A stretch of DNA of 64,000 bases from Bdellovibrionales bacterium (lineage in GTDB: Bacteria > Bdellovibrionota > Bdellovibrionia > Bdellovibrionales > UBA1609). This document shows, one piece after another, positions 10,568 to 36,569 of the stretch; position 1 is the stretch's first letter; the number at the start of each line of letters is the position of its first letter. The position numbers and the translations under genes are program-made. The stretch covers positions 955,529 through 1,019,528 of the forward strand of contig OZ250145.1 in assembly GCA_965237565.1 (NCBI GenBank), read 5' to 3'. Below the pieces are notes generated by a model. The model worked only from the letters and a program-made list of their open reading frames with translations. It searched no databases and was not told the DNA's origin.

Positions 10568-10645
10568 TTTTTTTATTCTCCTTTGATGAAAGCATTTAAA
10601 AAATGTTTATCATTTCATAAATTTTTCTATATAATACTCACAGAT

Positions 10646-11449: not shown

Positions 11450-11462
11450 AATTCACCCTTAG

Positions 11463-15011: not shown

Positions 15012-15136
15012 TCTTTATTCAAGGGGACCGTGTTTTTTTACCAGACTCACAAATCCGTTTGGACGATCAAGGTACTTTCTCATTGCATTTTATGCACCAC
15101 GAGTTTACACTGAGGGTGAATTAGGAGAAAGAGATT

Positions 15137-17101
15137 ATGAAACATTCTGGTCGAAAAGTTTTTTTGCTTTGGATACTTTTTTTAGTTCTTGGCATGCTTT
15201 TTTTCCAAGTCTATGAGTACAAACGCAAATCTTTTGTCAAAGATTTTAATTACCCCAAGTTTGTGGAAGCTCTTTCACAGGGTTACATTCAAAAGCAGGG
15301 TCTGGTTTTTGATACGACCAAAAAAGAAATCTTAGGTGATTTAACTCCATCTGGAGTGGAAAAATACAAAGGAAAAAAATTTCGTATTCAAGGCAATGTG
15401 GGAGACAAAGGTTTTGAGCTTTTAGACAAGTACGGAATTATTCCCTCCTATGTAAATAGCGATCATTCCTTTTGGACTTCCGTGTTTTTGAATTGGTTGC
15501 CTCTCATTATTTTTGCTGGGTTATTTATTTTCTTTATTCGTCAGCTCCAAATTGGAGGAGGAAAAGCTATGGCATTTGGAAAAAGTCGGGCTCGTTTGGT
15601 GGCAGATAAAAAGAAAGTGTTGTTTAAAGATGTGGCCGGCGTGGAAGAAGCCAGAGAGGAATTGATAGAGATTGTTGAGTTTTTAAAAAATCCAAAAAAA
15701 TTCACTCGTCTAGGTGGACGTATTCCAAAGGGAGTGTTGCTCATCGGAGCTCCTGGTACGGGTAAGACACTCTTGGCCAGAGCGGTTGCTGGGGAAGCCC
15801 ATGTTCCTTTTTTCACTATTTCTGGATCTGATTTTGTGGAAATGTTTGTGGGTGTAGGAGCTTCACGCGTGAGAGACTTATTTTTACAAGGAAAAAAACA
15901 CGCCCCTTGCGTCATCTTCATAGATGAAATCGATGCTGTCGGAAGGCATCGTGGCTCAGGCATGGGAGGAGGTCACGATGAAAGAGAACAAACGCTGAAT
16001 CAACTTTTGGTTGAGATGGATGGCTTTGAAAGCCAAGTTGGGATTATCTTGATCGCCGCTACCAATCGACCAGATGTTTTGGACCCCGCACTTCTCAGGC
16101 CTGGTCGTTTTGATCGCCGAGTGATTGTCAATTCTCCGGACCTAAATGGTCGTCACGAAATTTTAAAAGTCCATACAAGGAAAGTTCCTCTTTCAAAGTC
16201 CGTGGAACTAAAAAAAATTGCAAGAGGGACTCCGGGATTTTCCGGAGCAGACTTGGAAAATCTCGTCAACGAGTCCGCTTTGATGGCTGCTCGTGAAAAT
16301 AAAAATCAAATTGAAATGTCAGACATTGAAAAGTCAAGGGACAAGGTCATCATGGGTCGAGAAAGAAGATCTATGGTGATCAGTGAAGAGGATCGTAAGA
16401 TCACCGCCTACCATGAATCAGGTCACGCCCTCGTGGGGAGAAAATTACCCAATCTAGACCCTATCCATAAAGTGACAATCATCCCTCGTGGAATGGCCCT
16501 AGGTGTGACACAAACTCTTCCCAAGGAAGACACTCTGAACCTCACCAAGAGCAAGGCAGAAAATACTTTGGCCTTTTTGTTTGGAGGCAGAGCCGCCGAA
16601 GAAATCATTTTCAAAGACTATACGACAGGAGCGGGCAATGATATTGAAAAGGCTACTGAGCTGGCTCGTCGGATGGTTTGCGAGTGGGGAATGAGTGAAA
16701 AATTGGGCCCTCTAGCCTTGGAGAAAAAAGAAGTCCCTATTTATTTGGGCATACAATACACAAAAGGCAGAGAGTATTCAGAGGCGAAGGCTAAAGAAGT
16801 GGATGAAGAAGTTCGACTAATTATCCAAACAGCTTATAAGAAAGCCCTTCGCATTTTAAAAGAAAACAAAAAGGAGTTGAAAGTGATGGCCAAGGCTCTT
16901 TTGGAATTTGAAACCATTAGTGGTGAGGAAGTGAATCTGATTTTGGATGGAGCCAATTTGAGTCAATTGGAAAAAAGAAGATCCAACAGTGAATCTGCTT
17001 TAAAGAAGGAAAGAGAAGAAGTGGCCAAAACTTCCAAAACTTCAGATCAAAAATCGAGCCAAACCGATCCAGTGGGAGACCCGGATCCAATCATTGCCTA
17101 A
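15137..17101 (+). CDS. ftsH: ATP-dependent zinc metalloprotease FtsH
   Basis: Walker A '[13 protein letters not shown]', SRH region, Zn motif 'HESGHAL', N-terminal TM segments. Confidence 0.97.
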
Positions 17102-17107
17102 GAGACA

Positions 17108-18484
17108 ATGAAAAAAACGCAAAAACTTTTTGGAACAGATGGAATCAGAGGCAGGTCTAATCAGTTTCCTGTTCAAGCCGATGTCATTTTAAAAGTAGGG
17201 CAGGCGTTTGGTTATTTGTTGCAACAATCAAAAAAACCGAATCGAAAACATCCTATGGTTTTGATCGGCAAGGATACTCGTCTTTCTGGTTATATGCTGG
17301 AGCAAGCTTTAGCCAGTGGGCTCAACTCCATGGGAGTTTGGGTACAACTCACAGGGCCTTTGCCCACTCCGGGGATTGGTTTTTTGGCACGTAACATGAG
17401 AGCTTCTGCAGGAGTGGTGATCTCCGCTTCGCACAATCCCTATTCCGACAATGGAATCAAATTTTTTGATGAGCAGGGGTTTAAAATTTCCCACCAAATG
17501 GAAAAGAAAATTGAATCACTCGTATTTTCTGATGAATTAAACAAAAAAATTGTTTCATCGGACCGAGTGGGACGTAGCCGAAGAATTGATGATGCAGCTG
17601 GGAGATACATTGTCCATGTAAAAAATTCTTTTCCACTTGATCACACACTGGACGGACTTCGTATTGTTTTGGATTGTGGACACGGAGCCACTTACAAGAT
17701 CGCTCCCACCATTTTTCAAGAACTGGGTGCTGAGGTGATTGTTTTGGGCAACGAACCCAATGGCTACAACATCAACGACCGTGCTGGTACTTTGTACATG
17801 GAAACTCTTCGTGGAGTTGTGTTGAAACATGGAGCTCATGTGGGAATTAGCATTGATGGAGATGGGGACCGTGTTTTGATGACAGATGAATTGGGCAATC
17901 TGGTGGATGGAGATCACATTTTGGGTATTTGTGCCCTTAGTTTGCAAAAAAAAGGAGAGTTAACAGAAAACAAAGTGACGAGTACCTATATGTCCAACAT
18001 GGGTTTGGAAAAAATGTTGAACCAAAAGGGGATTGAGCTTTTTCGAACCGAAGTGGGGGATAGAAATGTAGTAGAATACATGAAGGAGCACGGGATTACA
18101 TTGGGAGGAGAACCTTCGGGTCACATCATTTTTCTTAATCAAAGTACGACGGGGGATGCCTGTGTAGCTGCCTTAAATGTTTTGGCCGTTATGAGATATG
18201 AAAACAAAAAACTTTCTGAGCTGAGATCAGTCTTACTCTCTGTTCCTCAACTAAAATCTTCGATCCATGTGACAAAAAAAGTGAATCTATCTGAGCTCAA
18301 AGGCTATTCTTCCTTAATGGGAAAGGTGCAAAAAAAACTTGCAGGCTTAGGGCGTGTCTATGTTCGTTTTTCTGGTACAGAGCCTGTGATCAGAATTTTG
18401 CTTGAATCGGAAGACACCAGCCTAATGAAATCTTGCTCAGATGAAATCACTCATTTTCTTCGTGAGAAATTGGTGAATGTCTAA
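17108..18484 (+). CDS. glmM: Phosphoglucosamine mutase
   Basis: 'SASHNPYSDNGIKFF' active-site serine loop, 'DGDGDR' Mg site. 458 aa. Confidence 0.95.
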   Translation: MKKTQKLFGTDGIRGRSNQFPVQADVILKVGQAFGYLLQQSKKPNRKHPMVLIGKDTRLSGYMLEQALASGLNSMGVWVQLTGPLPTPGIGFLARNMRASAGVVISASHNPYSDNGIKFFDEQGFKISHQMEKKIESLVFSDELNKKIVSSDRVGRSRRIDDAAGRYIVHVKNSFPLDHTLDGLRIVLDCGHGATYKIAPTIFQELGAEVIVLGNEPNGYNINDRAGTLYMETLRGVVLKHGAHVGISIDGDGDRVLMTDELGNLVDGDHILGICALSLQKKGELTENKVTSTYMSNMGLEKMLNQKGIELFRTEVGDRNVVEYMKEHGITLGGEPSGHIIFLNQSTTGDACVAALNVLAVMRYENKKLSELRSVLLSVPQLKSSIHVTKKVNLSELKGYSSLMGKVQKKLAGLGRVYVRFSGTEPVIRILLESEDTSLMKSCSDEITHFLREKLVNV

Positions 18485-23399: not shown

Positions 23400-23433
23400 G
23401 TATACAATTTGTTCCAGATAATAATAAAAAATC

Positions 23434-24267
23434 AGGGTCTGTTTTTACAGACAATGCAGTTATTCACTGGGGCATGAAGCAAAATAACCGTCTTTATCTT
23501 TACTGTAGTATTTAATGTATTTATATGATTGTAGAACTTCATGGCAGATCGAATTTCCTGTATTGGGAATATCAGAATCTGGATCGGGTATGCAATTATT
23601 TACCATTTGTTTAAAAAAACAATTTTGGTTCAGCAAACAAGTGCCGGTAGAGGGATCATAGATTGCATATAAAGATTCGCAAATTTTTTCATCTTCAAAC
23701 ATTACTTGGCAGGTCTCTACCACATGTGTCACGGGATTTAGGAGAAAAAGTATATCAAACTGATACAGAGGCAATTCAAAGGCTTTCGTGGGCTGAGCTT
23801 CAGGAATAATTTCTGAGAGGAGTTCGATTCTTCCAATAACCAATTTGTATTTTTGCTCCCTGAATAGATATGCTTGGACTGGTACAGAGTTTTTATGTTT
23901 CCAACTGAGGTTTTTAATTCGCCACCTACCATCAATAATGCTTCCAGTTTTAAGTATATTATCTTTTTGTAAATAGCTCCCGGTTTTGTACCCACTAATA
24001 TCAATACTTATTTCGGACTTTTTTGGAGGAACTTCTGTAGAATAGGGAAAAACTTTGCCAGAAAAATTCAATTTGCAAGATTGTTTTAGATAATAATTCA
24101 AACCAGAATAAAAATCATTAGCTTCAGCTTTAGCTAGCACATGCTCTTGAGATTGGAAATTTATTGGATACTAGTTTTCCAACTGCAAAGATCCAGATAG
24201 CAATCAAAATTGGGTCAAAAACTAAGTTCACTGATCTTGATTCAGATTTTAGCATCATCATTATTTT
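23434..24267 (-). pseudogene. Decayed paralogue of the 26702-27649 pilin-like Cys-rich gene
   Basis: Collinear with 26702-27640 but has three defects. A 95-bp deletion near the 3' end lies between 'attca' repeats and shifts the frame. A 1-nt insertion sits near the anchor-coding region. The start-codon region is lost at a junction. Confidence 0.8.
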
Positions 24268-24714
24268 CTTTATACCTATTTTAGTCGTAGGGATTGTCTC
24301 TGGATTGGAACTACCATTACTAATGAAAATCAGGAATAAAATGGAAGAAAAATTTTATGTCTTAGGATTTGATTTTGTGGGTATGTTTGTTGCATCTCTG
24401 TTATTTCCTATATCTTTTTTCACATTGGGGCTTTTTAAAACAGCAACCACTATCTCTATTATCAATCTTCTGGTTACCTATAGGCTTTCTCCCTCGAAAG
24501 AATTTGGTAAGGAAAAATTGATCGTTATATTTTTACTTCTTATCGCTATTTTTTTATGGCTATTCGACAAAAGGTATCTCCAGAAAAGCTATGGAGGGGA
24601 AAGACATCTTCCATCAATGGCACCAGATAGTAGCCCTCTAACGAAACAACAGGAAAGAGCATTAGAAGTGCCAAATAAAGAAAAAAAATAATCACCGAAG
24701 TGATTACTCTTTAT
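24260..24714 (+). pseudogene. Chimeric fragment: 3' half of the 29077-29760 membrane-protein gene fused to the 3' end of the metzincin gene
   Basis: 24260-~24565 matches 29401-~29710. ~24565-24714 matches 25882-26033. The track ORF 24164..24691 reads across both junctions. Confidence 0.8.
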
Positions 24715-24884
24715 TTTGGTTTTTGGCAAAGAATTGTAAAATTTTCTCTGCTACAACATAATTCTGATCGAACATGTGTTTTAAACTACCAGTGCACCAA
24801 GTATATGTACATTTTTAAACTGATAATCACTTTTATTGCTTTCCCCTTCTTTTTTTTCTCTTAACTTTGATATATGATATAAAA

Positions 24885-26039
24885 ATGAAAAAAATAGTAC
24901 AATATCTCCTTCATTTATCACTACTCCTTTTTGTGATGTGGTCATTAGATGTAAAAGTTCAAGCATTTGAGAGACTGAGAATCAAAGTTTTTTTAGGTGG
25001 TAGCTTGAAAGAAAAGGTCCTGCCTCTGGCCACCCCAAATCTTATCCTTGTAGGTAGTAGCCAAGGAACTGATGACACACCAACATTAGAAATTACAAAT
25101 TTAGAAAAGGATGCAAGGGTTAGCTTGTATAAAAACTCTCTTTGTTCTGGTTCTGGTGCCAATATTTTTGTAGATAGCAGTGGAAGATTTACAGTCCCCT
25201 CTGAGCTAGAGACAAGTTATGGAGGTAATTATTATTCTGCCAAACAAACAGTAAATGGAAAAAGCTCTGCTTGCTCTGAGGCCATTTATTATCTCCACTC
25301 TTCCCCGTCAATAAACGGATGGAAGCGCTGGTCCGAGGATATGCTACGTAAAGGTATCACTACTAAAATCAGTACATTTTTTGGCAAGGATCTAGAAGAC
25401 ACCCGAGATTCTCGTGGCATCAATGCTTTTGAACGAATGATGGAGGAGTGGAATAAAAACGGATTGAACGGATTGAACGGTTTTAAAGTTCCAAGCGTTA
25501 GAGTAGATAACATAGATGGACTAGTTTATGAGAATGGTGTAGTGTCAATTCATGTCAACCAACGAGATTTACCTATCTACACCCCTGATGTAATAGCCCG
25601 GGCCTTCCGTAGAATGATAGTTGAATATGAGGGTACTCCTTACGAACACGGACAGATAATCGCTGCTAGTGTTCTAGTGAACTGGAACGCACAATTAGAT
25701 TTTGTCGGCTTTACTTACGATCCTTTAGATATTCGTAACTTTGATTTACCTTCTACCATTCTTCATGAGTTAGGGCATTGCTTGGGTTTAGGGCATTCAC
25801 CTAGTGGTTCTATGTCAATAATGGAAGCATATTTTAGTAGTAATCCCGTCCTTCGAGCTCTGCGAGCTCTCACACCTTATGACAAAAGATATCTCCAGAA
25901 AAGCTATGGAGGAGAAAGACATCCCCCCCCATCAATGGCATCAGCTAACAGCCCTCTAGCGAAGCAGCAGAAAAGAGGATTACAAGCACCAAATAAAGAA
26001 AAAAAAATAATCACCGAAGTAATTACTCTTTATCGCTAG
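24885..26039 (+). CDS. Secreted metzincin-type zinc metalloprotease with an N-terminal Ig-like domain
   Basis: Signal 'MKKIVQYLLHLSLLLFVMWSLDVKVQA'. 'ILHELGHCLGLGHS' is HExxHxxGxxH, followed by 'SIMEAY' (Met-turn). 'TPTLEITNLEKDARVSLYKNSLCSG...SACSEAIYY' is a bacterial Ig-like pattern. Confidence 0.75.
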   Translation: MKKIVQYLLHLSLLLFVMWSLDVKVQAFERLRIKVFLGGSLKEKVLPLATPNLILVGSSQGTDDTPTLEITNLEKDARVSLYKNSLCSGSGANIFVDSSGRFTVPSELETSYGGNYYSAKQTVNGKSSACSEAIYYLHSSPSINGWKRWSEDMLRKGITTKISTFFGKDLEDTRDSRGINAFERMMEEWNKNGLNGLNGFKVPSVRVDNIDGLVYENGVVSIHVNQRDLPIYTPDVIARAFRRMIVEYEGTPYEHGQIIAASVLVNWNAQLDFVGFTYDPLDIRNFDLPSTILHELGHCLGLGHSPSGSMSIMEAYFSSNPVLRALRALTPYDKRYLQKSYGGERHPPPSMASANSPLAKQQKRGLQAPNKEKKIITEVITLYR

Positions 26040-26129
26040 TTCCCCACATAGCTTTTTTAGGTGGTAGCGTGAAAGAAAGGGTCCTGCCTCTGGCTACCCC
26101 AAATCTTAGCATTGTAGGTAGTAGCCATG

Positions 26130-26690
26130 GATGGGATTTATGCTTTTATGGATGCCCATCTGGGAGTGGATCCTGCTAAGGGAATCTTACTTAAAAGGTA
26201 TATTGGTGGGGAGTTGTATTGAAGCAGGTCATTGCCGAGTATATTGTGTTTCCAATATTCCCTTGGATTGGGCTAATATGGTTTTGCCTCAATGGGGAGG
26301 TTATTATCAGAAACCATTTGAAGTAGAGATTTATTGTCTTACCCTTACCCAAAATCCAATTATTTTTTATTCGTATATCACTTCTTTCTAGAGTAAATAT
26401 TTTTCTTTCTCAAATAAAAATTATGCACTGGCTTTGTTCTCTGCTGTAGGTAAAACGTTTTGGAATATGTTATATCACACATTTTATTTTTCTATTTTTG
26501 TACCAAAAGATTTTTTCTTTTTTCGATCTATATGAAACTGATCATTTTTTTAAATTTGCTGAATTATATCTATTCATTGGTGCAATGCAAGCATTCATTC
26601 TTACGGAGTTTTCGATACGGGCAGGAAACTATCTCAAAGAAAGGACCATCTTGCGCTATAAATGTTGATAGACTGTAGAGCTTATTTTTA
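26130..26690 (+). pseudogene. Decayed copy of the 3' half of the acyltransferase-like gene 27871-28968
   Basis: Matches 28300-28975, with an internal deletion (~40 codons) and frameshifts. Track ORFs 26131..26391 and 26460..26678 are its pieces. It is preceded (26052-26130) by a copy of metzincin nt 24988-25066. Confidence 0.8.
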
Positions 26691-26701
26691 TTAAAGTAGC
26701 A

Positions 26702-27649
26702 TTAGGGTCTGCTTTTACAGACAATGCAATTATTCATCTTTAGTCTTACTGAGTAGGTGTTTGTACAATTTTCTCCACAACTTTGCTTTTTTGATCCATA
26801 TAATGTAGTGGAAAAAAGCACAGTTGAATCACTGGGGCATGAAGCAAAATAACCATCTTTATCTTTACTGTTGTATTCAATGTATTTATGTGACTGCAAA
26901 ACCTCGTGGCAGATCGAATTTCCTGTATTGGGAATATCAGAATCTGGATCGGGTATGCAGTTATTAGCCCTGCTTTTAGAAAAACAATTTTGGTTCAATA
27001 AACAAGTACTGGTAGAGGGATCATAGATTGCATGTAAAGATTCGCAAATTTTTTCATCTTCAAACATTACTTGGCAGGTCTCTACCACATGTGTCACAGG
27101 ATTTAGGAGAAAAAGTATATCAAACTGATACAGAGGCAATTCAAAGGCTTCTGCGGGCTGAGCTTCAGGAATAATTTCTGATAAAAGTTCGATTCTTCCA
27201 ATAACCAATTTGTATTTTTGCTCCTTGAATAGATATGCTTGGACTGGTACAGAGTTTTTATGTTTCCAACTAAGCTTTTTAATTCGCCACCTACCATCAA
27301 TAATGCTTCCTGTCTTGAGTATATTATCTTTTTGCAAATAGCTTCCAGTTTTGTACCCATTAATATCAATACTTAGCTCAGAATCCTCAGGAGAGGCTTC
27401 TGTAGAATAGGGAAAAGGTTTGCCAGAAAAATTCAAATCGCAAGATTGTTTTAGATAATAGTCTAAGCCAGAATAAAAATCATTGGCTTCAGCTCTGGCC
27501 AGCACATGGTCTTGAGATTGAAAACTATTGGATACTAATGTTCCAACTGCCAAGATCCAGATAGCAATCAAAATTAGACCAAAAACTAGGCTCACTGAGC
27601 TTGATTCAGGCTTTAATATCATCATTATTTTTGTGTAAAAATTTTTCAT
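26702..27649 (-). CDS. Cys-rich exported protein with a pilin-like N-terminal hydrophobic anchor; function unknown
   Basis: 'MKNFYTKIMMILKPESSSVSLVFGLILIAIWILAVGTLV' is followed by a soluble domain with about 12 Cys. This is the intact paralogue of 23434-24267. The track ORF begins at GTG 27661. Confidence 0.6.
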   Translation of the reverse strand: MKNFYTKIMMILKPESSSVSLVFGLILIAIWILAVGTLVSNSFQSQDHVLARAEANDFYSGLDYYLKQSCDLNFSGKPFPYSTEASPEDSELSIDINGYKTGSYLQKDNILKTGSIIDGRWRIKKLSWKHKNSVPVQAYLFKEQKYKLVIGRIELLSEIIPEAQPAEAFELPLYQFDILFLLNPVTHVVETCQVMFEDEKICESLHAIYDPSTSTCLLNQNCFSKSRANNCIPDPDSDIPNTGNSICHEVLQSHKYIEYNSKDKDGYFASCPSDSTVLFSTTLYGSKKQSCGENCTNTYSVRLKMNNCIVCKSRP

Positions 27650-27870
27650 TCTGGTACCCACATTTAAAAGACCAAAAACTCCGCATGATCGACAAATGGG
27701 ATGCTAACAAATTGGATTGCAATGCACAATCAATATATCACAATATGCATCAAACATCTTTTTCAACAAATAAGTTTTCATTCTGGATTCGAAAAGATAA
27801 TATTGAAGAAAAATTTTCTATTCTAAGAGTTAATTGTAAACTCATGAAGTGAATAGCTGGTTTATTTCTC

Positions 27871-28968
27871 ATGGATATATGTAAAGAAAATTTTAGTAAA
27901 AATAAATTTCCAAGTCGTTTTTACTGTCTAGATGTTCTTCGATTTTTCTCCATTCTCAATATTATATATTATCACTTGTGTGAGATATTTTTTCACAACA
28001 ATTTTCTACTGCCCATAACCGGCAACATGATAAATATTCATAGAGCTTTTTTGGTGCTAAATATCTTCATACTTATTGCTTTCCCACCTTTTTTTTATGG
28101 CTTGAAACCAAGCTCTAAAGATCGGTGGAAGAAACTCATCGCCCTTATACTCCTAGGGCATATTGTTTTGTTCTTTTCTTATTCAGGAACCCTTGGAACT
28201 TTTTACACTAGCTGGGATATTTTTACGTTTTTGAGTGTAAGTACTTTTTCTCTTTATTTGATAAAGAGATTTAAAAAACTTATTGTTCTCTCTTTTTGCA
28301 TGGGATTCATACTTTTATGGATGCCCATCTGGAAATGGATACTACCAGGGCCTTCTTACTTAAAAGGTATATTGGTGGGGAGTTGTGTTGAAGCAGGTCA
28401 TTCTGAGTACATTGTGTTTCCAATATTCCCTTGGATTGGGCTAATATGGTTTTGCTATGGTTTGGGAACTTGGGTTGGAAAAAAAGCTTTGGCTATTCTA
28501 TCGACTTGGCAAGTCAAAGAAATTTTTATCTGGCTTTTCTTATTTATAATAGCTTTCCCCCAATGGGGAGGCTATTATCAGAAACCATTTGAGGTAGAGA
28601 TTTACTGTCTTGCCCTTACACGAGATCCAATTATTTTTTGGAGTCATTTTATTATTATCTTATTTTTTATTCGCATATCACTTCTCTCTAGAGTAAATAC
28701 TTTTTTTTCTCAAATGAAGATTGTGCACTGGCTTTGCTCTCTATCATGGGTAAGACGTTTTGGAATATGTTACATCACACATTTTGTTTTTCTATTTTTG
28801 TACCAAAGGCTTTTTTCTGTTTTGGGTCTATATGGAAACAATCATTTTTTTGAATTTGCTGAGTTATATTTACTTATTGGTGTAATGCAAGCTCTCATCC
28901 TTACGGAATTTTCGGTGCGAGTGGGCAGTTACCTTAAAGAAAGAATCATCTCGCAACATAGATGCTGA
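27871..28968 (+). CDS. Polytopic membrane protein, acyltransferase-3 / DUF1624-like
   Basis: About 10 hydrophobic segments. The N-terminal 'RFYCLDVLRFFSILNIIYYH' resembles the R..lD.lR......v..H opening of the AT3/heparan-N-acetyltransferase-like families. Confidence 0.5.
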   Translation: MDICKENFSKNKFPSRFYCLDVLRFFSILNIIYYHLCEIFFHNNFLLPITGNMINIHRAFLVLNIFILIAFPPFFYGLKPSSKDRWKKLIALILLGHIVLFFSYSGTLGTFYTSWDIFTFLSVSTFSLYLIKRFKKLIVLSFCMGFILLWMPIWKWILPGPSYLKGILVGSCVEAGHSEYIVFPIFPWIGLIWFCYGLGTWVGKKALAILSTWQVKEIFIWLFLFIIAFPQWGGYYQKPFEVEIYCLALTRDPIIFWSHFIIILFFIRISLLSRVNTFFSQMKIVHWLCSLSWVRRFGICYITHFVFLFLYQRLFSVLGLYGNNHFFEFAELYLLIGVMQALILTEFSVRVGSYLKERIISQHRC

Positions 28969-29076
28969 CGGACTTTAAGGCTTGTTCTTATTGACCAAAT
29001 AAAGTAGTGTCGTGGGTGAATAATATTAAAAAAATGCCTAGGATCATACTTTTTCTTTTGAAAGGAAAAAAAATCA

Positions 29077-29760
29077 ATGAAACAGATAGAAAATAAAAAA
29101 GAGTTCATGTTCATTACTTTTCTTCTAGCTTTTTGTAGCTTATTTTATGAACTCATTTTTTCTCAATTGATATCTATCTTTATTGGAAGTGTTATTTTCA
29201 GTTATAGTTTGGGAATTGGAGTTTTTATCCTAGGCTTGGGTTTGGGAGCTTTTTTGTGTGATAGGTTAACGGATAAGTCAAAGTATATTGAGCAACTTTT
29301 TTATATTGAGATAGCCTTAGCTATTTACGCACTTATTGGGCTGTATGTGGGGATTATTTTGGCACAAGTGACAACATTTTATCCTACAACACTTAGATAC
29401 ATTATTTTCTTTATACCCATTTTAGCTGTGGGAATTGTCTCTGGGCTGGAATTACCATTACTAATGAAAATAAGAAATAAGATTGAAGAAAAATTTTATG
29501 TCTTGGGATTTGATTTTGTAGGCATGTTTGTTGCATCTTTACTATTTCCTATATTTTTTTTCACATTGGGACTTTTTAAAGCAGCTACCACTATCGCTAT
29601 TATCAATCTTCTAGCTGCCTATAGGCTTGCTCCTTTTAAAAAATTTGGTAAAGAAAAATTGATCGTTATATTTTTGCTCCTTATTGCTACTCTTTTATGG
29701 TTGTTTGATTCTCATTTGATTCCTTTACGAGAATACCTATTTTTAGGAACGAGGGCGTGA
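29077..29760 (+). CDS. Membrane-only homologue of the N-terminal domain of the downstream fused membrane/spermidine-synthase-like proteins
   Basis: 'FCSLFYELIFSQLISIFIGSVIFSYSLGIGVFILGLGLGAF' parallels 'FCSMSYQLLMARALAETTGHHILSYSASFGFFLLGMGIGG' of the paralogues. Its stop overlaps the GTG start of the next gene (gcGTGA). Confidence 0.65.
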   Translation: MKQIENKKEFMFITFLLAFCSLFYELIFSQLISIFIGSVIFSYSLGIGVFILGLGLGAFLCDRLTDKSKYIEQLFYIEIALAIYALIGLYVGIILAQVTTFYPTTLRYIIFFIPILAVGIVSGLELPLLMKIRNKIEEKFYVLGFDFVGMFVASLLFPIFFFTLGLFKAATTIAIINLLAAYRLAPFKKFGKEKLIVIFLLLIATLLWLFDSHLIPLREYLFLGTRA

Positions 29761-31427
29761 TTTTTCTAAGAGTATTATTCTTAGCATTTTGTAGTATGAG
29801 CTACCAACTCTTAATGGCCAGAGCTTTAGCCGAAACAACAGGTCATCATATACTTAGTTATAGTGCCTCTTTTGGTTTCTTTTTGCTTGGGATGGGAATT
29901 GGTGGAATTTATTATACCAAATCCTTGATTCGAAAATCTCCACTCAAGGTCTTTTTTTATACGGAAATTTTATTAGCTCTTTTAGGTGGTTTGGCTGTTG
30001 TTTTTATCTTTTTTTCACATACTTTGCTAAATCTTTGGTTTTTTTCAGACATGAATAACTTCTTTTCAGAACGGATAAAGGATTTTCTCTTTATCTTTTT
30101 TTCACAAATTTTTCTTTTTCTTGTTGGCTTTCTTTCCGGCTTTGAGCTTCCCATTTGGTTGAAATTAGCAGAAGCAAGAAAAAATTCCCAAGGAATTTTA
30201 AACAAGACTGGAGCTTTATTGGCAGCTAGCTACATGGGAGGTTTTGCTGGAAGCTTGTTACTTACACTTTTGATTGCGCCGATTTTTGGACTCATCAGTT
30301 CTTGTATATTAATTGGTTTTATAAATGTAATTGTTTTGATTGAGACTTTTGTTTCTTATAAAAATCTTTCTTTAAAAAAAAGTTTTGCTATTTTGGCATC
30401 TATATTTGTTATTTATACAGGTGGGTTTTGGCAAAAAGAGATTTTGCAAATTAATTTAAAATCTTCTTATTTACAAGTGGGTTTGTCGGAATTTAGTTTT
30501 AATGCGGCAAAAGATTTTTTTTCTTTATCTCATCATTATGGAGAAGTTTTAAGAATCCGTACTCCTTATCAAAATGTTGATATTTTGCTTTCCAATTTTT
30601 TAAAAAATCCCGTTCATAATTCTTTTACATTCAGTGGATCTGGAATTGTTCTTTTTCTGAATAGATTTACACAGTTTGAAGAAAAATTTTGGTTAATCTA
30701 TCATGAAATGCTTGCGATTGGAGGGGTACTTTTGGCGGATAAAGAACCTAAAAATGTCTTAGTTTTAGGTGGAGGGGATGGGCTACTCATCTCACAGATG
30801 TTAAAGCTTTATAAGGGGATTAAAAAAATCACCCAAGTTGATATTGATTCCGCCTTAATTAAAGTAGGAAGGTATTATAGGCCCATAAATGTCGTGAACC
30901 AAGAAGCTTTGTCGAGTCATAAATTAACTACTATTATAGGTGATGCCTTTGAGTATGTGAGCAAATCCAAAAGCACCTATGATGCTATTTTTATAGATAT
31001 ACCTTTTCCATATACCTTTGATTTGTCTAGGCTCTATAGCTTTGAATTTTATAAAAATCTTAGCCATCTTTTAGAAGAAGATGGTTTTGTTGTAACAGAT
31101 TCTCCTACCAAAGAGTGTTTGAAAACATCTTTATTTGTTGAGAAAATACTTCAGCTGTCTGATTCTCCAATGAATATTCTTTATAACACCCTAACTTATG
31201 CTGGTTACAAAACAGTTATTCCTTATGGTACAACAGAACCATGCATGCTATTTTTTCAAAAAATAAAACGAGATAAGGTTAATTTTAGTAAAGAAGAGAT
31301 TGAGAAATATCCGCTATCTAAGATAGGAAAAAGAAATTTAGTTATAAATAAAGATGTAAAAAAAGATGTTAAAATTAAGAAAAAGTATATTAATTCTGTT
31401 TTTAAACCTACGCTATTCAGATATTAG
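29757..31427 (+). CDS. Fused polytopic membrane / spermidine-synthase-like protein, paralogue 1
   Basis: About 7-8 TM segments, then 'VLVLGGGDGLLISQML...ITQVDIDSALI...IIGDAFEYV...YDAIFIDIPFPYTFDLSRLYSFEFY' (SpeE-fold motifs). Confidence 0.75.
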   Translation: MIFLRVLFLAFCSMSYQLLMARALAETTGHHILSYSASFGFFLLGMGIGGIYYTKSLIRKSPLKVFFYTEILLALLGGLAVVFIFFSHTLLNLWFFSDMNNFFSERIKDFLFIFFSQIFLFLVGFLSGFELPIWLKLAEARKNSQGILNKTGALLAASYMGGFAGSLLLTLLIAPIFGLISSCILIGFINVIVLIETFVSYKNLSLKKSFAILASIFVIYTGGFWQKEILQINLKSSYLQVGLSEFSFNAAKDFFSLSHHYGEVLRIRTPYQNVDILLSNFLKNPVHNSFTFSGSGIVLFLNRFTQFEEKFWLIYHEMLAIGGVLLADKEPKNVLVLGGGDGLLISQMLKLYKGIKKITQVDIDSALIKVGRYYRPINVVNQEALSSHKLTTIIGDAFEYVSKSKSTYDAIFIDIPFPYTFDLSRLYSFEFYKNLSHLLEEDGFVVTDSPTKECLKTSLFVEKILQLSDSPMNILYNTLTYAGYKTVIPYGTTEPCMLFFQKIKRDKVNFSKEEIEKYPLSKIGKRNLVINKDVKKDVKIKKKYINSVFKPTLFRY

Positions 31428-31453
31428 ATTAAACTTATTTTTGGGAATTGCCG

Positions 31454-33178
31454 GTGATTTTTGTAAGAATTTTCATTTTGTCTTTTTGTAGTATGAGTTA
31501 TCAACTTCTGATGGCTAGATCTTTAGCTGAAATAACACAACATCATATATTTGGTTATAGTATTTCCTTTGGCTTCTTTTTGCTTGGGATGGGAATTGGT
31601 GGAATTTATTATGCCAAATCTTTGATTCAAAAATCTCCACTCAAGGTCTTTTTTTCTACTGAAATTTTCTTAGCTCTTTTAGGTGGTTTAGCTGTTTTTT
31701 TTATCTTTTTTTCACATACTTTGCTAAATCTATTGGTTTTTTCAGACATGAATAACTTCTTTTCTGGAAATGCAAAAGATTTTATCTTTATCTTTTTTTC
31801 ACAAAGTTTTCTTTTTCTTATTGGCTTTTTTTCCGGCTTTGAGCTTCCCATTTGGTTGAAATTAGCAGAAGCAAGAAAAAATTCCCAAGGAATTTTAAAC
31901 AAAACTGGAGCTTTATTGGCAGCTAGCTACATGGGAGGTTTTGCTGGAAGTTTGTTACTTACACTTTTGATTGCACCAATTTTTGGACTCATCAGCTCTT
32001 GTATATTGATTGGGTTTATAAATGTAATTATTTTGATTGAGACTTTTGTTTCTTATAAAAATCTTTCTTTAAAAAAAAGTTTTGCCATTTTGGTATCTAT
32101 ATTTTTCCTTTATATGGGAAATTATTGGCAAAAAGAGATTTTGCAAATGAATTTGAAATCTTATTATTTGCGGGTGGGTTTGTCGGAGTTTAGTTTTAAG
32201 GCAGCAAAAGATTTTTTTTCTTTGTTGGATGATTATAATGAAATTTTAAGAGTTCGGACTACTTATCAAAATGTAGACATTATACTTTTCAATTTTTTAA
32301 GAAATTCCTCTCAACGGAATTTTCCATTTAGAGATCGTACTCTCCATCTTTTTCTGAATAGGTTTCATCAATTTGAATTTTCCCTAGACAAATTCAATCG
32401 AGAAAGCTGGGTACGAGAAAACTGGGTACGAGAAAGCTGGGTAGATTATTATGATACTTCATTGGTTGGAGGAGCTATTTTAGCAGGTGGAGAACCTAAA
32501 AATATTTTGATTGTAGGGGCAGGAGGACATAGTTTAGGGCTCCCACGAGTTCTAAAATTTTATAAGGGAGTTAGAAAAATTACATTATTGGATATTGATC
32601 CCTTCATGATCAAAATAGGAAGATCCTATAAACCCATAAGTAGTTTGAACCCAAAAGACCTTCTGAAGCATAAACTGAATATTATCATAGATGATGCTTT
32701 TGACTACGTGAGCAAAACCATGGATACTTATGATGCTGTGTTTATACAATTCCCCTCTCCATACACTTTTGATTTATCTAGGCTTTATAGCTTTGAATTT
32801 TATAAAAATCTCAGTCATCTTCTAGAGGAAGATGGTTTTATTTTGATGGATGCTCGTTCGATTGAGTGTGGGAAGGCAGCTTTATTTAATGAAGAAGGAT
32901 TTCAGTTTTCTGGTTCTCCGGTTAATATTTTGTATAGCACACTAACTTATGCTGGTTACAACACAATTATCATTTACGGTAGGACAAGGTCGTGTCTTTT
33001 ATTTGCTCAAAAAATAAAGCGAGATGAAATTAGTTTTAAGAAAAAAGCAATGAAAAAATATCCCTTATCTAAGAGAAGAGAAAAAGAGTTGGTTATAAAT
33101 AAAGATATAAAAAAAAGTATTGAAATCAAGCGAAAGTATATCAACTCCGTTTTCAAGCCCACATTCTTCAGATACTAA
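31454..33178 (+). CDS. Fused membrane / spermidine-synthase-like protein, paralogue 2 (degenerate cofactor motif)
   Basis: Same architecture, but GGGDG is replaced by 'GAGGHSLG' and 'FIDIP' by 'FIQFP'. It carries a 'RESWVRENWVRESWV' insertion. I prefer GTG 31454 (MIFVRIF..., matching its siblings) over TTG 31448. Confidence 0.7.
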   Translation: MIFVRIFILSFCSMSYQLLMARSLAEITQHHIFGYSISFGFFLLGMGIGGIYYAKSLIQKSPLKVFFSTEIFLALLGGLAVFFIFFSHTLLNLLVFSDMNNFFSGNAKDFIFIFFSQSFLFLIGFFSGFELPIWLKLAEARKNSQGILNKTGALLAASYMGGFAGSLLLTLLIAPIFGLISSCILIGFINVIILIETFVSYKNLSLKKSFAILVSIFFLYMGNYWQKEILQMNLKSYYLRVGLSEFSFKAAKDFFSLLDDYNEILRVRTTYQNVDIILFNFLRNSSQRNFPFRDRTLHLFLNRFHQFEFSLDKFNRESWVRENWVRESWVDYYDTSLVGGAILAGGEPKNILIVGAGGHSLGLPRVLKFYKGVRKITLLDIDPFMIKIGRSYKPISSLNPKDLLKHKLNIIIDDAFDYVSKTMDTYDAVFIQFPSPYTFDLSRLYSFEFYKNLSHLLEEDGFILMDARSIECGKAALFNEEGFQFSGSPVNILYSTLTYAGYNTIIIYGRTRSCLLFAQKIKRDEISFKKKAMKKYPLSKRREKELVINKDIKKSIEIKRKYINSVFKPTFFRY

Positions 33179-33204
33179 GTGAAATTGATTGTTGAGAATT
33201 ACTA

Positions 33205-34875
33205 ATGATTTTTATAAGAATTTTCATTTTGTCTTTTTGTAGTATGAGTTATCAACTCCTGATGGCCAGATCTTTGGCCGAAACAACAAGCTATTATATA
33301 TTTAGCTATAGCGTATCCTTTGGCTTCTTTTTGCTTGGGATGGGAATTGGTGGAATTTATTATGCCAAATCTTTGATTCAAAAATCTCCACTCAAGGTCT
33401 TTTTTTATATTGAAATTTTCTTAGCTCTTTTAGGTGGTTTAGCTGTTTTTTTTATCTTTTTTTCACATACTTTTCTGAATTTATTGTTTTTTTCAGACAT
33501 GAATAACTTCTTTTCTGGAATTGCAAGAGATTTTCTCTTTATACTGGTTTCACAAATTTTTCTTTTTCTTGTTGGCTTTTTTTCTGGTTTTGAACTTCCT
33601 ATTTGGTTAAAATTGGCAGAAATAAAAAAAGATTCTAAAGCAATATTATACAAAACTGGAGCTTTACTGGGAGCTAGCTACATGGGAGGTTTTGCTGGAA
33701 GCTTGTTAATCACACTTTTGATTGTGCCAATTTTTGGTCTACTCAATGCCTGTGTACTGATTGGTTTGATAAACTTAATAGTTTTGATTGAGACTTTTGT
33801 TTCTTATAAAAGTCTTTCTTTAAAAAAAAGTTTTGCTATTTTGGCATCTATATTCTTGCTTTACGCAGGGAATTTTTGGCAAAAAGAGATTTTGCAAATG
33901 AATTTAAAATCTTCTTATTTAGAATTAGGTTTGTCGGAATTTAGCTTTAAAGCAGCGAAAGATTTTTTGTCCTTATCTCATGATTATGAGGAAATTTTAA
34001 GAGTCCGTACTCCTTACCAAAATATTGATATTATGCCCTCCAACTTTTTAAAAAATTCCAAGCGATTAGGATTTTCATTTAGTGAATATGGAATCGTTCT
34101 TTTTTTGAATAGATTTTGGCAGTTCCATCAAGCATTTTGGGTATCCAACCATGAAGCTCAGGTGGTTGGAGGAACTCTTTTGGCGGGTAAAGAACCTAAA
34201 AATATTTTAATTTTGGGTGGAGGGGATGGATTGATGATCTCACAGATGTTAAAGTTTTATAAGGGAATCAAAAAAATTACACAAATCGATATTGATTCTG
34301 TCTTAATTAAGGTAGGAAGATATTATAGGCCCATAAGTGCCGTGAGCAAGGAAGCTCTTTTGAGCAATAAATTAACTACTATTATAGGTGATGGGTTTGA
34401 ATATGTGAGCAAATCCAAAAGCACTTATGATGCTGTTTTTATAGATGTACCCATGCCATATACTTTTGATTTGTCTAGACTTTATAGTTTTGAATTTTAT
34501 AAAAATCTTGGTCATATTTTAGAAGAAGATGGATTTGTTGTGATGGATTCTCCTTTGAAAGGATGTCAGAAAATATTTTTATTCGGTGGAACAATGTTTG
34601 AACTAGCTGGTTCTCCAGCTAATATTTTGTATAGCACTTTAACTTATGCAGGTTACAAAACAATTATTGCTTATGGAATGAATTATACATGTATACTATT
34701 TTTTCAAAAAATAAAACGAGATAAAATTGAGTTTACTAAAACAGAAATTGAAAAATATTCTTTATCCAAAGGAGGGAAAAGAGAGTTGCTTATACATAAA
34801 GATGTAGAAAAGAATATTAAAATTAAACAAAAATACATCAATTCTGTTTTTAAGCCTACGCTATTCAGATACTAG
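33205..34875 (+). CDS. Fused membrane / spermidine-synthase-like protein, paralogue 3
   Basis: 'ILILGGGDGLMISQML', 'ITQIDIDSVLI', 'YDAVFIDVPMPYTFDLSRLYSFEFY'. Confidence 0.75.
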   Translation: MIFIRIFILSFCSMSYQLLMARSLAETTSYYIFSYSVSFGFFLLGMGIGGIYYAKSLIQKSPLKVFFYIEIFLALLGGLAVFFIFFSHTFLNLLFFSDMNNFFSGIARDFLFILVSQIFLFLVGFFSGFELPIWLKLAEIKKDSKAILYKTGALLGASYMGGFAGSLLITLLIVPIFGLLNACVLIGLINLIVLIETFVSYKSLSLKKSFAILASIFLLYAGNFWQKEILQMNLKSSYLELGLSEFSFKAAKDFLSLSHDYEEILRVRTPYQNIDIMPSNFLKNSKRLGFSFSEYGIVLFLNRFWQFHQAFWVSNHEAQVVGGTLLAGKEPKNILILGGGDGLMISQMLKFYKGIKKITQIDIDSVLIKVGRYYRPISAVSKEALLSNKLTTIIGDGFEYVSKSKSTYDAVFIDVPMPYTFDLSRLYSFEFYKNLGHILEEDGFVVMDSPLKGCQKIFLFGGTMFELAGSPANILYSTLTYAGYKTIIAYGMNYTCILFFQKIKRDKIEFTKTEIEKYSLSKGGKRELLIHKDVEKNIKIKQKYINSVFKPTLFRY

Positions 34876-34901
34876 CTCAAATTGATTCTTAGGGAGGACC
34901 A

Positions 34902-36569
34902 ATGATTTTTGTAAGAATTTTCATTCTGTCTTTTTGCAGTATGAGCTATCAATTTTTGATGGCTAGATCTTTAGCTGAGACAACAGGTCACTATATACTT
35001 AGTTACAGTGTCTCATTTGGTTTTTTTTTATTGGGGATGGGAATTGGTGGAATTTATTATGCCAAATCCCTGATTCGAGAGCCTCCACTCAAGGTCTTTT
35101 TTTATATTGAAATTTTGTTGGCTCTTCTAGGTGGTCTGGCTGTTTTTTTTATCTTTTTTTCACATACTTTGTTAAATCTTTGGTTTTTTTCGGATATAAA
35201 TAACTTATTTTCAGGGCAGGTAAAAGATTTTATTTTTATCTTTTTTTCACAAATTATTCTTTTTTTTGTTGGTTTCCTTTCTGGATTTGAACTTCCTATC
35301 TGGTTAAGATTGACAAAAATGAAAAAAAATATCAATGGGGCTTTGTATGAAACTGGAGCTTTATTGGCAGCTAGCTGCATGGGAGGTTTTGTTGGAAGCT
35401 TGTTAATTACCCTTTTAATTGTGCCAATTTTTGGTCTGATTCATTCTTGCATACTGATTGGTTTTATAAACCTAATTATTTTGATGGAATCTTTTGGTTT
35501 TTATAAAAATCTTTCCTTAAAAAAAAGTTTTGCTATTTTAGTATCTATATTTATACTTTACACAGGGAATTTTTGGCAAAAAGAGATTTTGCAAATTAAT
35601 TTAAAATCTTCTTATTTGCGAGTGGGTTTGTCGGAATTTAGTTTTAAAGCAGCGAGAGATTTTTTTTCTTTGTTGGATAATTACAATCAAGTATTAAGAG
35701 TTCGGACTTCTTATCAAAATGGCGATATTATGCTTTCAAATTTTTTAAGAAATTTTGCTCAATCGAGTTTTCCATTTCATAATCATGGAGTCACTCTTTT
35801 CCTGAATAGATTTTGGCAATTTGATCAAGTATTTTGGCTATCCTACCATGAAGCTGAAGCAGTTGGAGGGGCTCTTTTGGCAGGAAAAGAGCCCAAAAAT
35901 ATCTTAATTTTAGGTGGAGGAGAAGGGTTGTTAATTTCACAGATTCTAAAATTTTATAAAGGAATCAAAAAAATTACACAAGTGGAGATTGATCCTATTA
36001 TGATGAAAGTAGGAAGATACTATAAACCTGTCAGTACTGTGAGCCAAGGAGCTCTTTTAAATCACAAATTGAATACTATTCTAGGGGATGGTTTTGAATA
36101 TGTAAGCAAAGCCAAAAGCACCTATGATGCTATTTTTGTTGATGTTCCTTTTCCATATACTTTTGATTTGTCTAGACTCTATAGCCTTGAATTTTATAAA
36201 AATCTTAGCCATCTTTTAAAAGAAGATGCTTTTGTTGTCATAGATTCTCCTTTAAAGGAATGCGAGAGAGAAATTTTTGGGGAAGAGGCAACTCAATTAG
36301 CTGGTTCTCCAGCTAATATTTTATATAGTACCTTAACTTATGCTGGTTACAAAACAATTATTGCTTATGGAATGAATGATACATGTATATTATTTTTTCA
36401 AAAAATAAAGCGAGATGAAGTTAGTTTTAGAGAAGAAGAGCTAAAAAAATATCCCATATCTAAAGAAACAAGAAAGATGCTCACCATAAACAAAGAGATA
36501 GAAAAAAATATTAAAATTAAACGAAAATATATCAATTCTGTTTTTAAACCTACGCTATTCAGGTACTGA
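34902..36569 (+). CDS. Fused membrane / spermidine-synthase-like protein, paralogue 4
   Basis: 'ILILGGGEGLLISQIL', 'ITQVEIDPIMM', 'YDAIFVDVPFPYTFDLSRLYSLEFY'. Confidence 0.75.
   Translation: MIFVRIFILSFCSMSYQFLMARSLAETTGHYILSYSVSFGFFLLGMGIGGIYYAKSLIREPPLKVFFYIEILLALLGGLAVFFIFFSHTLLNLWFFSDINNLFSGQVKDFIFIFFSQIILFFVGFLSGFELPIWLRLTKMKKNINGALYETGALLAASCMGGFVGSLLITLLIVPIFGLIHSCILIGFINLIILMESFGFYKNLSLKKSFAILVSIFILYTGNFWQKEILQINLKSSYLRVGLSEFSFKAARDFFSLLDNYNQVLRVRTSYQNGDIMLSNFLRNFAQSSFPFHNHGVTLFLNRFWQFDQVFWLSYHEAEAVGGALLAGKEPKNILILGGGEGLLISQILKFYKGIKKITQVEIDPIMMKVGRYYKPVSTVSQGALLNHKLNTILGDGFEYVSKAKSTYDAIFVDVPFPYTFDLSRLYSLEFYKNLSHLLKEDAFVVIDSPLKECEREIFGEEATQLAGSPANILYSTLTYAGYKTIIAYGMNDTCILFFQKIKRDEVSFREEELKKYPISKETRKMLTINKEIEKNIKIKRKYINSVFKPTLFRY

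Follow-up and report, generated by a model that had tools for sequence, protein, structure and literature searches.

A putative two-protein membrane system with spermidine synthase-like catalytic subunits, expanded fourfold in a Bdellovibrionales bacterium

INTRODUCTION

Proteins that join an N-terminal polytopic membrane module to a spermidine synthase (SpeE)-like domain are widespread and are routinely annotated as spermidine synthases, and we know of no bacterial protein of this kind that has a known substrate. Fusions between a major facilitator superfamily (MFS)-type module and a spermidine synthase (SpdSyn) domain, the subject of work by Li, Kurihara, Kim, Liang and Michael in 2019 (Biochem J 476:2579), reportedly failed to complement an Escherichia coli speE mutant; they are also said to be clustered with S-adenosylmethionine decarboxylase (AdoMetDC) and to have been proposed to aminopropylate a substrate other than putrescine. 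In another publication, this work is cited for "aminopropylation of other substrates" (PMC11237479). The sole experimentally characterized enzyme with a seven-transmembrane (7-TM) module and a SpdS-like domain that we found in the literature is the fungal N-terminal histidine methyltransferase (NHMT), whose 7-TM sequence has been reported in filamentous fungi alone (PMC10349129). Here, we analyze an array of five genes, which we call M0 and P1–P4, in a 64,000-nucleotide (nt) stretch of DNA (hereafter the window) from a Bdellovibrionales bacterium (assembly GCA_965237565.1, contig OZ250145.1, positions 955,529–1,019,528 of the forward strand). All coordinates of the array refer to positions in the window.

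We read the array as a fourfold expansion of the catalytic subunit in a conserved two-protein membrane system, which would act as an aminopropyltransferase that uses decarboxylated S-adenosylmethionine (dcSAM) and an acceptor other than putrescine, and whose catalytic domain is probably periplasmic. We place the probability of this reading at roughly 0.55.

RESULTS

A tandem array of one membrane protein and four fused paralogues

The list of open reading frames (ORFs) in the window contains five consecutive + strand genes, M0 followed by P1–P4, and their coordinates, spacers or overlap, motif variants and shared C-terminal tail are all as given in the initial annotation of this DNA. M0 (29077–29760; 227 aa) is a 7-TM protein that resembles one half of an MFS transporter, and its gene overlaps that of P1 by 4 nt (GTGA). 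The P1 gene (29757–31427; 556 aa) opens with GTG and encodes a 7-TM module followed by a SpeE fold, with the active-site motifs GGGDG, YHE and DIPFP, and represents the orthodox copy. P3 (33205–34875; 556 aa) carries GGGDG, NHE and DVPMP, and the near-orthodox P4 (34902–36569; 555 aa) carries GGGEG, YHE and DVPFP. P2 (31454–33178) has GAGGH and QFPSP and the substitutions H316Y, D341H and D414Q in P1 numbering. The longest ORF of P2 runs from a TTG codon at 31448 and encodes 576 aa; because all homologues open with MIFxR and the database gene call (P0004) is 574 aa long, the true start is probably the GTG at 31454. With this start, the P1–P2, P2–P3 and P3–P4 spacers, listed as 20, 26 and 26 nt, would all be 26 nt.

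P1–P4 are 70–76% identical to one another, and all four end with KYINSVFKPT(L/F)FRY. M0 shares 25–34% identity with their N-terminal ~200 residues. Most of the extra length of P2 is explained by an in-frame tandem repeat of three 15-nt units (32399–32443, + strand; consensus CGAGAAAGCTGGGTA, 93% matches), which encodes RESWV-like units just upstream of the position of the YHE motif. A promoter and terminator scan gave counts that were not above the shuffled expectation, and no operon boundaries are drawn from it.

P1–P4 fall below the curated thresholds of two named families

All four P proteins pass the spermidine synthase domain model PF01564 (64.6–94.9 bits against a cut-off of 22.9; E 1e-17 to 6e-27). 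The best-scoring curated model for M0 as well as for P1–P4 is NF002956 (PRK03612, membrane-fused polyamine aminopropyltransferase), whose architecture of an N-terminal polytopic module and a C-terminal SpeE domain is that of the P proteins. M0 matches the membrane part of this model with 100 bits. These matches, together with the identity between M0 and the membrane modules, bear out the domain architecture and the M0 homology that had been proposed from the sequence. P1–P4, however, reach 186–218 bits on NF002956, below its cut-off of 472. Their clade relatives score 233–334 bits, and canonical members with DxPDP score 570–578 bits; proteins with an aromatic residue at the position of the second Asp fall below the cut-off, whereas canonical DxPDP members lie above it. 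The P proteins also fall short of NF037959 (fused MFS/spermidine synthase; 12.6–21.7 bits against 40) and of the equivalog models TIGR00417 (spermidine synthase; 56–88 bits against 249.55) and NF002010 (65–107 bits against 260).

The AlphaFold model of P1 (mean predicted local distance difference test score (pLDDT) 84.7; predicted TM-score (pTM) 0.80) comprises seven TM helices and a complete SpeE fold, which confirms a polytopic module but settles on seven helices the earlier estimate of seven to eight. In a Foldseek search with this model, the top 50 matches in the PDB are all aminopropyltransferases, the best being Thermus SpeE (1uir; E 5e-12). A profile search of 1.84 billion representatives returned 1,810 cluster representatives at E ≤ 1e-30. 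By these profile scores, P1–P4 fall within a large, unnamed clade that is sister to PRK03612 and stays under the curated cut-offs of both named families. Membrane-fused SpeE-like proteins are a known but uncharacterized kind, as had been noted at the outset, and the array belongs there.

M0-like proteins accompany P and are repeatedly linked to AdoMetDC

A genome scan seeded with a 10-sequence alignment identified 13 related loci in metagenome-assembled genomes (MAGs) of Bdellovibrionales and Bacteriovoracaceae; a scan of species-representative genomes seeded with P1 alone found no relative. In all 13 loci, one M0-like gene stands beside one P gene, and M0 orthologues adjoin P in four further loci (L014, L016, L018 and L019). 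The start/stop overlap between M0 and P, usually of 4 or 1 nt, is kept in the relatives.

M0 is furthermore linked to AdoMetDC in several arrangements. In eight Bacteriovoracaceae loci (L006–L013) and on contigs L016 and L017, M0 is the C-terminal part of a 356-aa AdoMetDC–M0 fusion, in which the N-terminal ~120 residues form an AdoMetDC domain (PF02675, E 6e-19) that keeps the ESH self-cleavage motif. In a Dehalococcoidales MAG (L014) and in L018, the genes for M0, a stand-alone AdoMetDC and P follow one another in that order, and both AdoMetDCs pass TIGR03330 (133 and 117 bits, respectively, against a cut-off of 75.65). Single chains occur as well: among the best 150 family representatives, two (P0137 and P0139) join AdoMetDC, 7-TM module and SpeE domain, and 13 join M0, 7-TM module and SpeE domain. 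In the latter, the first membrane module outscores the second on the M0 hidden Markov model (HMM), the M0 part has six TM helices and is without TM7 of M0, and Lys and Arg are abundant in the linker.

By its sequence and distribution, M0 is an ancient partner subunit, a distinct paralogue that stands beside P from Dehalococcoidales to Bdellovibrionota, often together with or fused to AdoMetDC, and not as a split-off piece of the P proteins, as it had first been described. A hetero-oligomeric M0–P membrane complex, one of the two possibilities raised initially, is plausible because natural single-chain M0–P fusions exist, and the conserved 4-nt overlap is also in keeping with it. For the AlphaFold2 model of M0 (pLDDT 88.8), nearly all of the top 50 Foldseek matches in the PDB are MFS transporters, aligned with weak scores over ~200 columns, or about one lobe each. 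The Pfam MFS_1 family (PF07690) is carried by the distant full-length P homologues P0035 and P0037. We infer from the models that M0 and the TM module of P could be the two lobes of an MFS-like unit; the natural single chains of M0 (6 TM) and P (7 TM) would agree with an assembly of both lobes into one 12-TM transporter.

Just downstream of P in L018, a further match resembling AdoMetDC (~9830–10380) was observed, which is weak (E 9e-6, domain HMM) and comes in addition to the bona fide AdoMetDC that lies upstream.

Conserved and altered catalytic residues

Residue conservation was assessed in an alignment of 189 homologues, with P1 numbering. The glycine-loop acidic residue D341 is Asp in 184 and Glu in three sequences, and the catalytic D414 is present in 187; the acidic residues D364 and D396 are conserved in 189 and 188, respectively, and Y315 and H316 of the YHE motif in 185 and 187. 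Conservation extends beyond the SpeE domain to E70 (188/189), E130 (188/189) and N190 (182/189) in the TM module and to a C-terminal N-S-x-x-x-P tail (N in 180, S in 166 and P in 183 of the sequences). By comparison, the position that aligns with the second Asp of Thermus DLTDP, the residue that we take from SpeE structures to bind the distal amine of the diamine, is variable: it is Tyr in 70, Phe in 29, Asp in 27, Ala in 11, Val in seven and Met in six sequences, with others in the remainder, and it is F, S, M and F in P1, P2, P3 and P4, respectively. Across the census, both the N-S-x-x-x-P tail and the aromatic residue in place of the second Asp are features of the family as a whole, and the DxP[F/Y]P motif, which had been described as non-canonical, is usual throughout a large clade.

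The four copies differ in how much of this catalytic set they retain. P1 is orthodox at all catalytic sites, and P4 differs solely by D341E; its GGGEG loop, which the initial annotation had counted as a variant, is canonical and is present in Thermus SpeE. In P3, the loop is GGGDG and the catalytic Asp is kept, and the Tyr of the YHE motif is Asn (Y315N), a replacement found in two of the 189 homologues. P2 keeps this Tyr but is the sole sequence of the 189 with H316Y, D341H and D414Q, which leave it with a GAGGH loop, a His at the acidic position and a Gln in place of the catalytic Asp. Every invariant of the TM module and of the C-terminal tail is nevertheless kept in P2, as it is in the other three copies. 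Based on these residues, P2 has most likely become either a subunit without catalytic activity or a copy whose chemistry is altered; a role as regulatory partner is speculation.

The acidic residue of GxG(D/E)G is needed for dcSAM binding and separates users of dcSAM from users of S-adenosylmethionine (SAM), and it is non-acidic in the SAM-using fungal NHMT (PMC10349129). Since this residue is Asp in P1 and P3 and Glu in P4, and since relatives are linked to AdoMetDC, dcSAM-dependent aminopropyl transfer to a non-putrescine acceptor is the most likely chemistry. The initial caution that aminopropyl transfer is not assured thus seems largely answered for P1 and P4, and transfer by P3 appears probable, whereas the doubt is upheld for P2.

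The same evidence bears on another explanation, in which P1–P4 are ordinary membrane-anchored spermidine or polyamine synthases acting on putrescine or agmatine, the membrane module moves the polyamine, and the copies serve dosage or make different polyamines. The pass on PF01564, the fact that the best NCBIfam matches are all "polyamine aminopropyltransferase" models, the best structural match to the Thermus triamine/agmatine aminopropyltransferase, the conserved dcSAM-site residues and the AdoMetDC linkage in relatives would all fit such enzymes. We nonetheless regard this explanation as unlikely, as the second Asp is replaced in all four copies (by F, S, M and F) and most of the clade has Tyr or Phe in its place, every equivalog score lies far under its cut-off, the related MFS–SpdSyn fusions reportedly did not complement an E. 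coli speE mutant, and P2 is without the catalytic Asp.

A predicted outward-facing catalytic domain

The loops of the TM module show a marked charge bias. In the 189 sequences, the mean number of Lys and Arg residues is 1.4 at the N-terminus, 3.1 in loop 2–3, 2.7 in loop 4–5 and 2.9 in loop 6–7, as compared with 0.2 in loop 1–2, 0.7 in loop 3–4 and 0.4 in loop 5–6. This bias suggests a cytoplasmic N-terminus, with which the N-terminal AdoMetDC fusions agree, since these have no signal peptide and AdoMetDC needs cytoplasmic SAM. The absence of TM7 of M0 and the Lys/Arg-rich linker in the M0–P single chains fit this topology as well. Given a cytoplasmic N-terminus and an odd number of helices (seven), the SpeE-like catalytic domain is predicted to lie outside and probably faces the periplasm. 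If so, the MFS-like module would have to bring dcSAM across the membrane; in eukaryotes, luminal methylation offers a parallel in that it relies on Golgi SAM transporters (cited in PMC10349129).

These observations can be combined into a working model. The system would transfer the aminopropyl group of dcSAM to a non-putrescine acceptor. A two-lobed, MFS-like conduit would be formed by M0 together with the TM module of P; its glutamates that are invariant and lie within the membrane (E70 and E130 of P; E78 and E125 of M0) may handle a cationic substrate, and dcSAM would pass through the conduit to the catalytic domain at the periplasmic face. More tentatively, we propose a trans-membrane aminopropylation machine composed of a cytoplasmic AdoMetDC, either fused to M0 or P or encoded beside them, the M0/P conduit for dcSAM, and a periplasm-facing SpeE-like domain that would modify a component of the envelope, for example a lipid head group or glycan, or an amine of peptidoglycan or of a protein. 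In the present genome, four catalytic paralogues would then share one M0, and one of the four may be a dead, prozyme-like subunit.

Several points weigh against the dcSAM-dependent, outward-facing system that we favor. An HMM search of six-frame translations revealed no AdoMetDC in the window, nor within 10 kb of the M0–P pair in the five closest relatives (L001–L005), and among the 120 matches listed of the 6,102 in an AdoMetDC alignment search of the database none lies on the 1,331,856-bp contig that holds the window. The AdoMetDC domains of the Bacteriovoracaceae fusions score just under the TIGR03330 cut-off, and homologues of pyruvoyl AdoMetDC can instead decarboxylate arginine or ornithine (PMC10407285). 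The similarity of M0 to MFS transporters is weak (Foldseek E 0.03–0.5; TM-score 0.37–0.54), and PF07690 has no match on the window proteins. The periplasmic orientation is a prediction based solely on helix count, the positive-inside rule and the logic of the fusions. To our knowledge, an extracytoplasmic enzyme that uses dcSAM is without characterized bacterial precedent.

The predicted orientation would also suit SAM-dependent methyltransferases similar to the fungal NHMT, which would methylate secreted or envelope proteins at their N-termini or at other groups. NHMT has the same architecture of seven TM helices and a SpdS-like domain and acts on secreted proteins in the endoplasmic reticulum (PMC10349129), and the His of P2 at the acidic glycine-loop position would fit this chemistry. 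In NHMT, however, the corresponding residue is the non-acidic I322, as compared with Asp or Glu in 187 of the 189 family members, including P1, P3 and P4, and the repeated fusion with or adjacency to AdoMetDC makes no sense for a methyltransferase, so that we consider this possibility very unlikely.

Copy number and history of the array

Each of the 13 related loci holds a single P copy, and L019 has an M0–P pair and a second P 2.6 kb downstream. Of the genomes sampled, this one alone has the fourfold array, whereas the M0–P pair is conserved. The arrangement had been called unusual as a whole; this holds for the fourfold array, but not for the presence of M0 beside P. Judged by their sequences, P1–P4 arose by tandem expansion of the catalytic subunit to four copies, specific to this lineage.

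The initial annotation had offered rapid diversification under selection as another way to account for the array. Gene-wide estimates by the Nei–Gojobori method gave ratios of nonsynonymous to synonymous divergence (dN/dS) of 0.22–0.34 for every pair of P1–P4 at dS of 0.5–0.7, which argues for old duplicates that purifying selection has maintained. The ratio for P2 is ~0.3, and Tajima relative-rate tests were non-significant, indicating no rate acceleration; P2 is not accelerated overall. Rapid diversification is therefore not what these estimates suggest.

Divergence is distributed unevenly along the genes. In the TM half, dS is 0.26 between P1 and P2 and 0.30 between P2 and P3, as compared with 0.79–0.93 in the catalytic core; P1 and P2 are 97% identical at the nucleotide level over codons 120–180 and 65% over codons 330–390, and the closest pairs of P genes differ between the N- and C-terminal halves. 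This mosaic identity and the incongruence between halves point to gene conversion. A duplication of a two-gene unit (P1P2 to P3P4), which a 2,620-nt blastn match had suggested, was not retained, as identities in sliding windows are mosaic and gene conversion has blurred the history.

In L019, a 1.84-Mb relative, the two P paralogues (10001–11734 and 14335–16035) share 78% identity overall, and at least their first 80 residues are the same, which suggests ongoing gene conversion between them. Three genes lie between the two, among them one for a DUF418 membrane protein.

The DNA upstream of the array contains conserved neighbors as well as duplicated fragments. A 365-aa polytopic membrane protein is encoded at 27871–28968 (+ strand), and its orthologues are kept near M0–P in the five closest relatives (L001–L005), usually downstream of P and overlapping it. 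No PDB relative of this protein was found by sequence or profile. Its assignment as a transmembrane acetyltransferase of the HGSNAT type was rejected, since the match to PF07786 is marginal (23.8 bits against a cut-off of 22) and none of the five orthologues matches. Gene X (26702–27661, − strand; 319 aa) is divergent from the cluster and lies near the pair in L001–L003 and L005; its L001 orthologue has a weak N_methyl (pilin-like) motif.

The region 23431–29000 is a patchwork of decayed segmental duplicates. Within it, 23457–24267 matches 26821–27631 in gene X (90% nt identity), 24259–24567 matches 29400–29708 in the 3' part of M0 (87%), 24566–24714 matches 25881–26033, and 24983–25067 matches 26047–26131. 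An ORF at 24164–24691 (+ strand) contains a truncated second copy of M0 (24275–24574; M0 residues 114–213, 86% aa identity; dN 0.08 and dS 0.63 against M0), which is joined to a duplicated 3' end from the neighboring metalloprotease-like gene. The latter gene (24867–26039; 390 aa) has a weak match to matrixin-type zinc proteases (PF00413, 27.4 bits) with the motif HELGHxxGLGH, and the ORF at 24164–24691 ends with a duplicate of its C-terminal ~50 codons. Positions 26128–26692 (+ strand) hold an incomplete, decayed duplicate of the 365-aa gene's 3' part (78–90% nt identity to 28297–28992). The whole region looks like the remnant of a second X–M0–P–365 locus that was partly overwritten by the metalloprotease-like gene.

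Such a recombination-prone region in a small genome raises the question of whether the array itself is a by-product, with extra copies that are redundant or decaying and have no distinct roles. The patchwork of decayed fragments at 23.4–29 kb, which duplicate parts of M0, gene X, the 365-aa gene and the metalloprotease-like gene, the mosaic identity and gene conversion among the paralogues, and the catalytic residues lost in P2 and P3 would fit such a process. We consider it quite unlikely, because the four ORFs are intact and of equal length, the dN/dS and dS values indicate old and constrained copies, the invariants of the TM module and the C-terminus are all kept in four copies without overall acceleration of P2, and a second lineage (L019) also retains two copies.

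Composition and neighboring genes

The G+C content is 0.31–0.34 across positions 28001–36000 of the window, as compared with 0.40–0.43 in the flanks, and the genes downstream of the array are housekeeping genes. In Bacteriovoracaceae, two conserved same-strand genes, encoding proteins of ~1,120–1,350 aa and 317–376 aa, lie tightly upstream of AdoMetDC–M0 and P (L007 4981–9634; L012 4450–9607; L016 2459–6931) and may be further parts of the system; for the ~1,180-aa and 376-aa proteins of this operon, neither Pfam nor the PDB gave a match. Beyond P, the Bacteriovoracaceae loci continue with a convergent GNAT acetyltransferase gene and flagellin genes. In L001, a 1.87-Mb relative, subunits A and B of topoisomerase VI (TP6A_N/Toprim and HATPase/Topo-VIb_trans, respectively; 14656–17719) are encoded ~3 kb from M0–P. 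Topoisomerase VI is uncommon in bacteria.

DISCUSSION

Our analysis adds three features to the picture of membrane-fused SpeE-like proteins: a conserved, separately encoded partner resembling a half-transporter together with AdoMetDC fusions, a catalytic domain that is predicted to face outward, and a fourfold array with a member that appears catalytically degenerate. If the proposed chemistry and orientation are true, the system would represent polyamine-independent use of dcSAM at the cell envelope and a previously unknown kind of bacterial envelope modification, and the annotation of thousands of genes would be in need of correction. The array also provides a natural series, consisting of an orthodox, a Tyr-less and a probably catalytically dead copy, for dissecting the roles of the parts.

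Among the closest described relatives are the PRK03612/NF002956 proteins of the actinobacterial type (for example, Streptomyces P0045), which share full-length homology with the window proteins and have a 7-TM module with the same invariant glutamates followed by a SpeE fold. The two groups differ in several respects. True members score ~570 bits on NF002956, as compared with 186–334 bits for the window proteins and their clade against the cut-off of 472, and they carry D[FL]PDP, whereas the window clade has DxP[Y/F/...]P. In addition, the separate M0 partner and the AdoMetDC link are features of the window clade. The MFS/SpdSyn-like fusions of NF037959 likewise join a transporter-like module to a SpdSyn-like domain. 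They are reportedly linked to AdoMetDC, a linkage that occurs here in Bacteriovoracaceae, Dehalococcoidales and other relatives but not in the window or in L001–L005. They nevertheless constitute a different family, on whose model the window proteins reach at most 21.7 bits against the cut-off of 40. The membrane module of the window proteins is half-sized (7 TM) and would be completed by the separate M0, and its odd helix count, by contrast with these fusions, predicts an extracytoplasmic catalytic domain.

Beyond these two families, the architecture of the P proteins recurs in proteins of other domains of life. The fungal NHMT (AN4663), the N-terminal histidine methyltransferase of secreted lytic polysaccharide monooxygenases, combines a ~215-aa 7-TM module with a SpdS-like domain and acts on substrates of the secretory pathway (PMC10349129). 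By its published description, NHMT is a SAM user with Ile at the acidic residue of GxG(D/E)G, whereas P1, P3 and P4 keep Asp or Glu. The Haloferax volcanii proteins HVO_0255 and HVO_B0357 also have seven TM helices and a SpeE-like domain; they are uncharacterized, and each genome has two such paralogues, of which one shows a degenerate glycine loop (PMC5178350, PMC6267482). Unlike the genes of the window, the Haloferax pair is archaeal and unlinked, the genomes concerned have no AdoMetDC, and no M0-type partner has been reported.

Soluble SpeE enzymes (Thermus thermophilus 1UIR/3ANX, Thermotoga maritima 1INL and human 2O06) have the whole catalytic fold, including the N-terminal β domain, in common with P1 (Foldseek E 5e-12 over ~280 columns). 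Also shared with the P family are GGG(D/E)G, YHE, the acidic residue that binds ribose, the Asp that binds adenine and the catalytic Asp. By comparison, soluble SpeE has no membrane module and possesses the second Asp of D-x-x-D-P that is replaced in the window proteins, whereas the N-S-x-x-x-P tail at the C-terminus is confined to the membrane-fused family.

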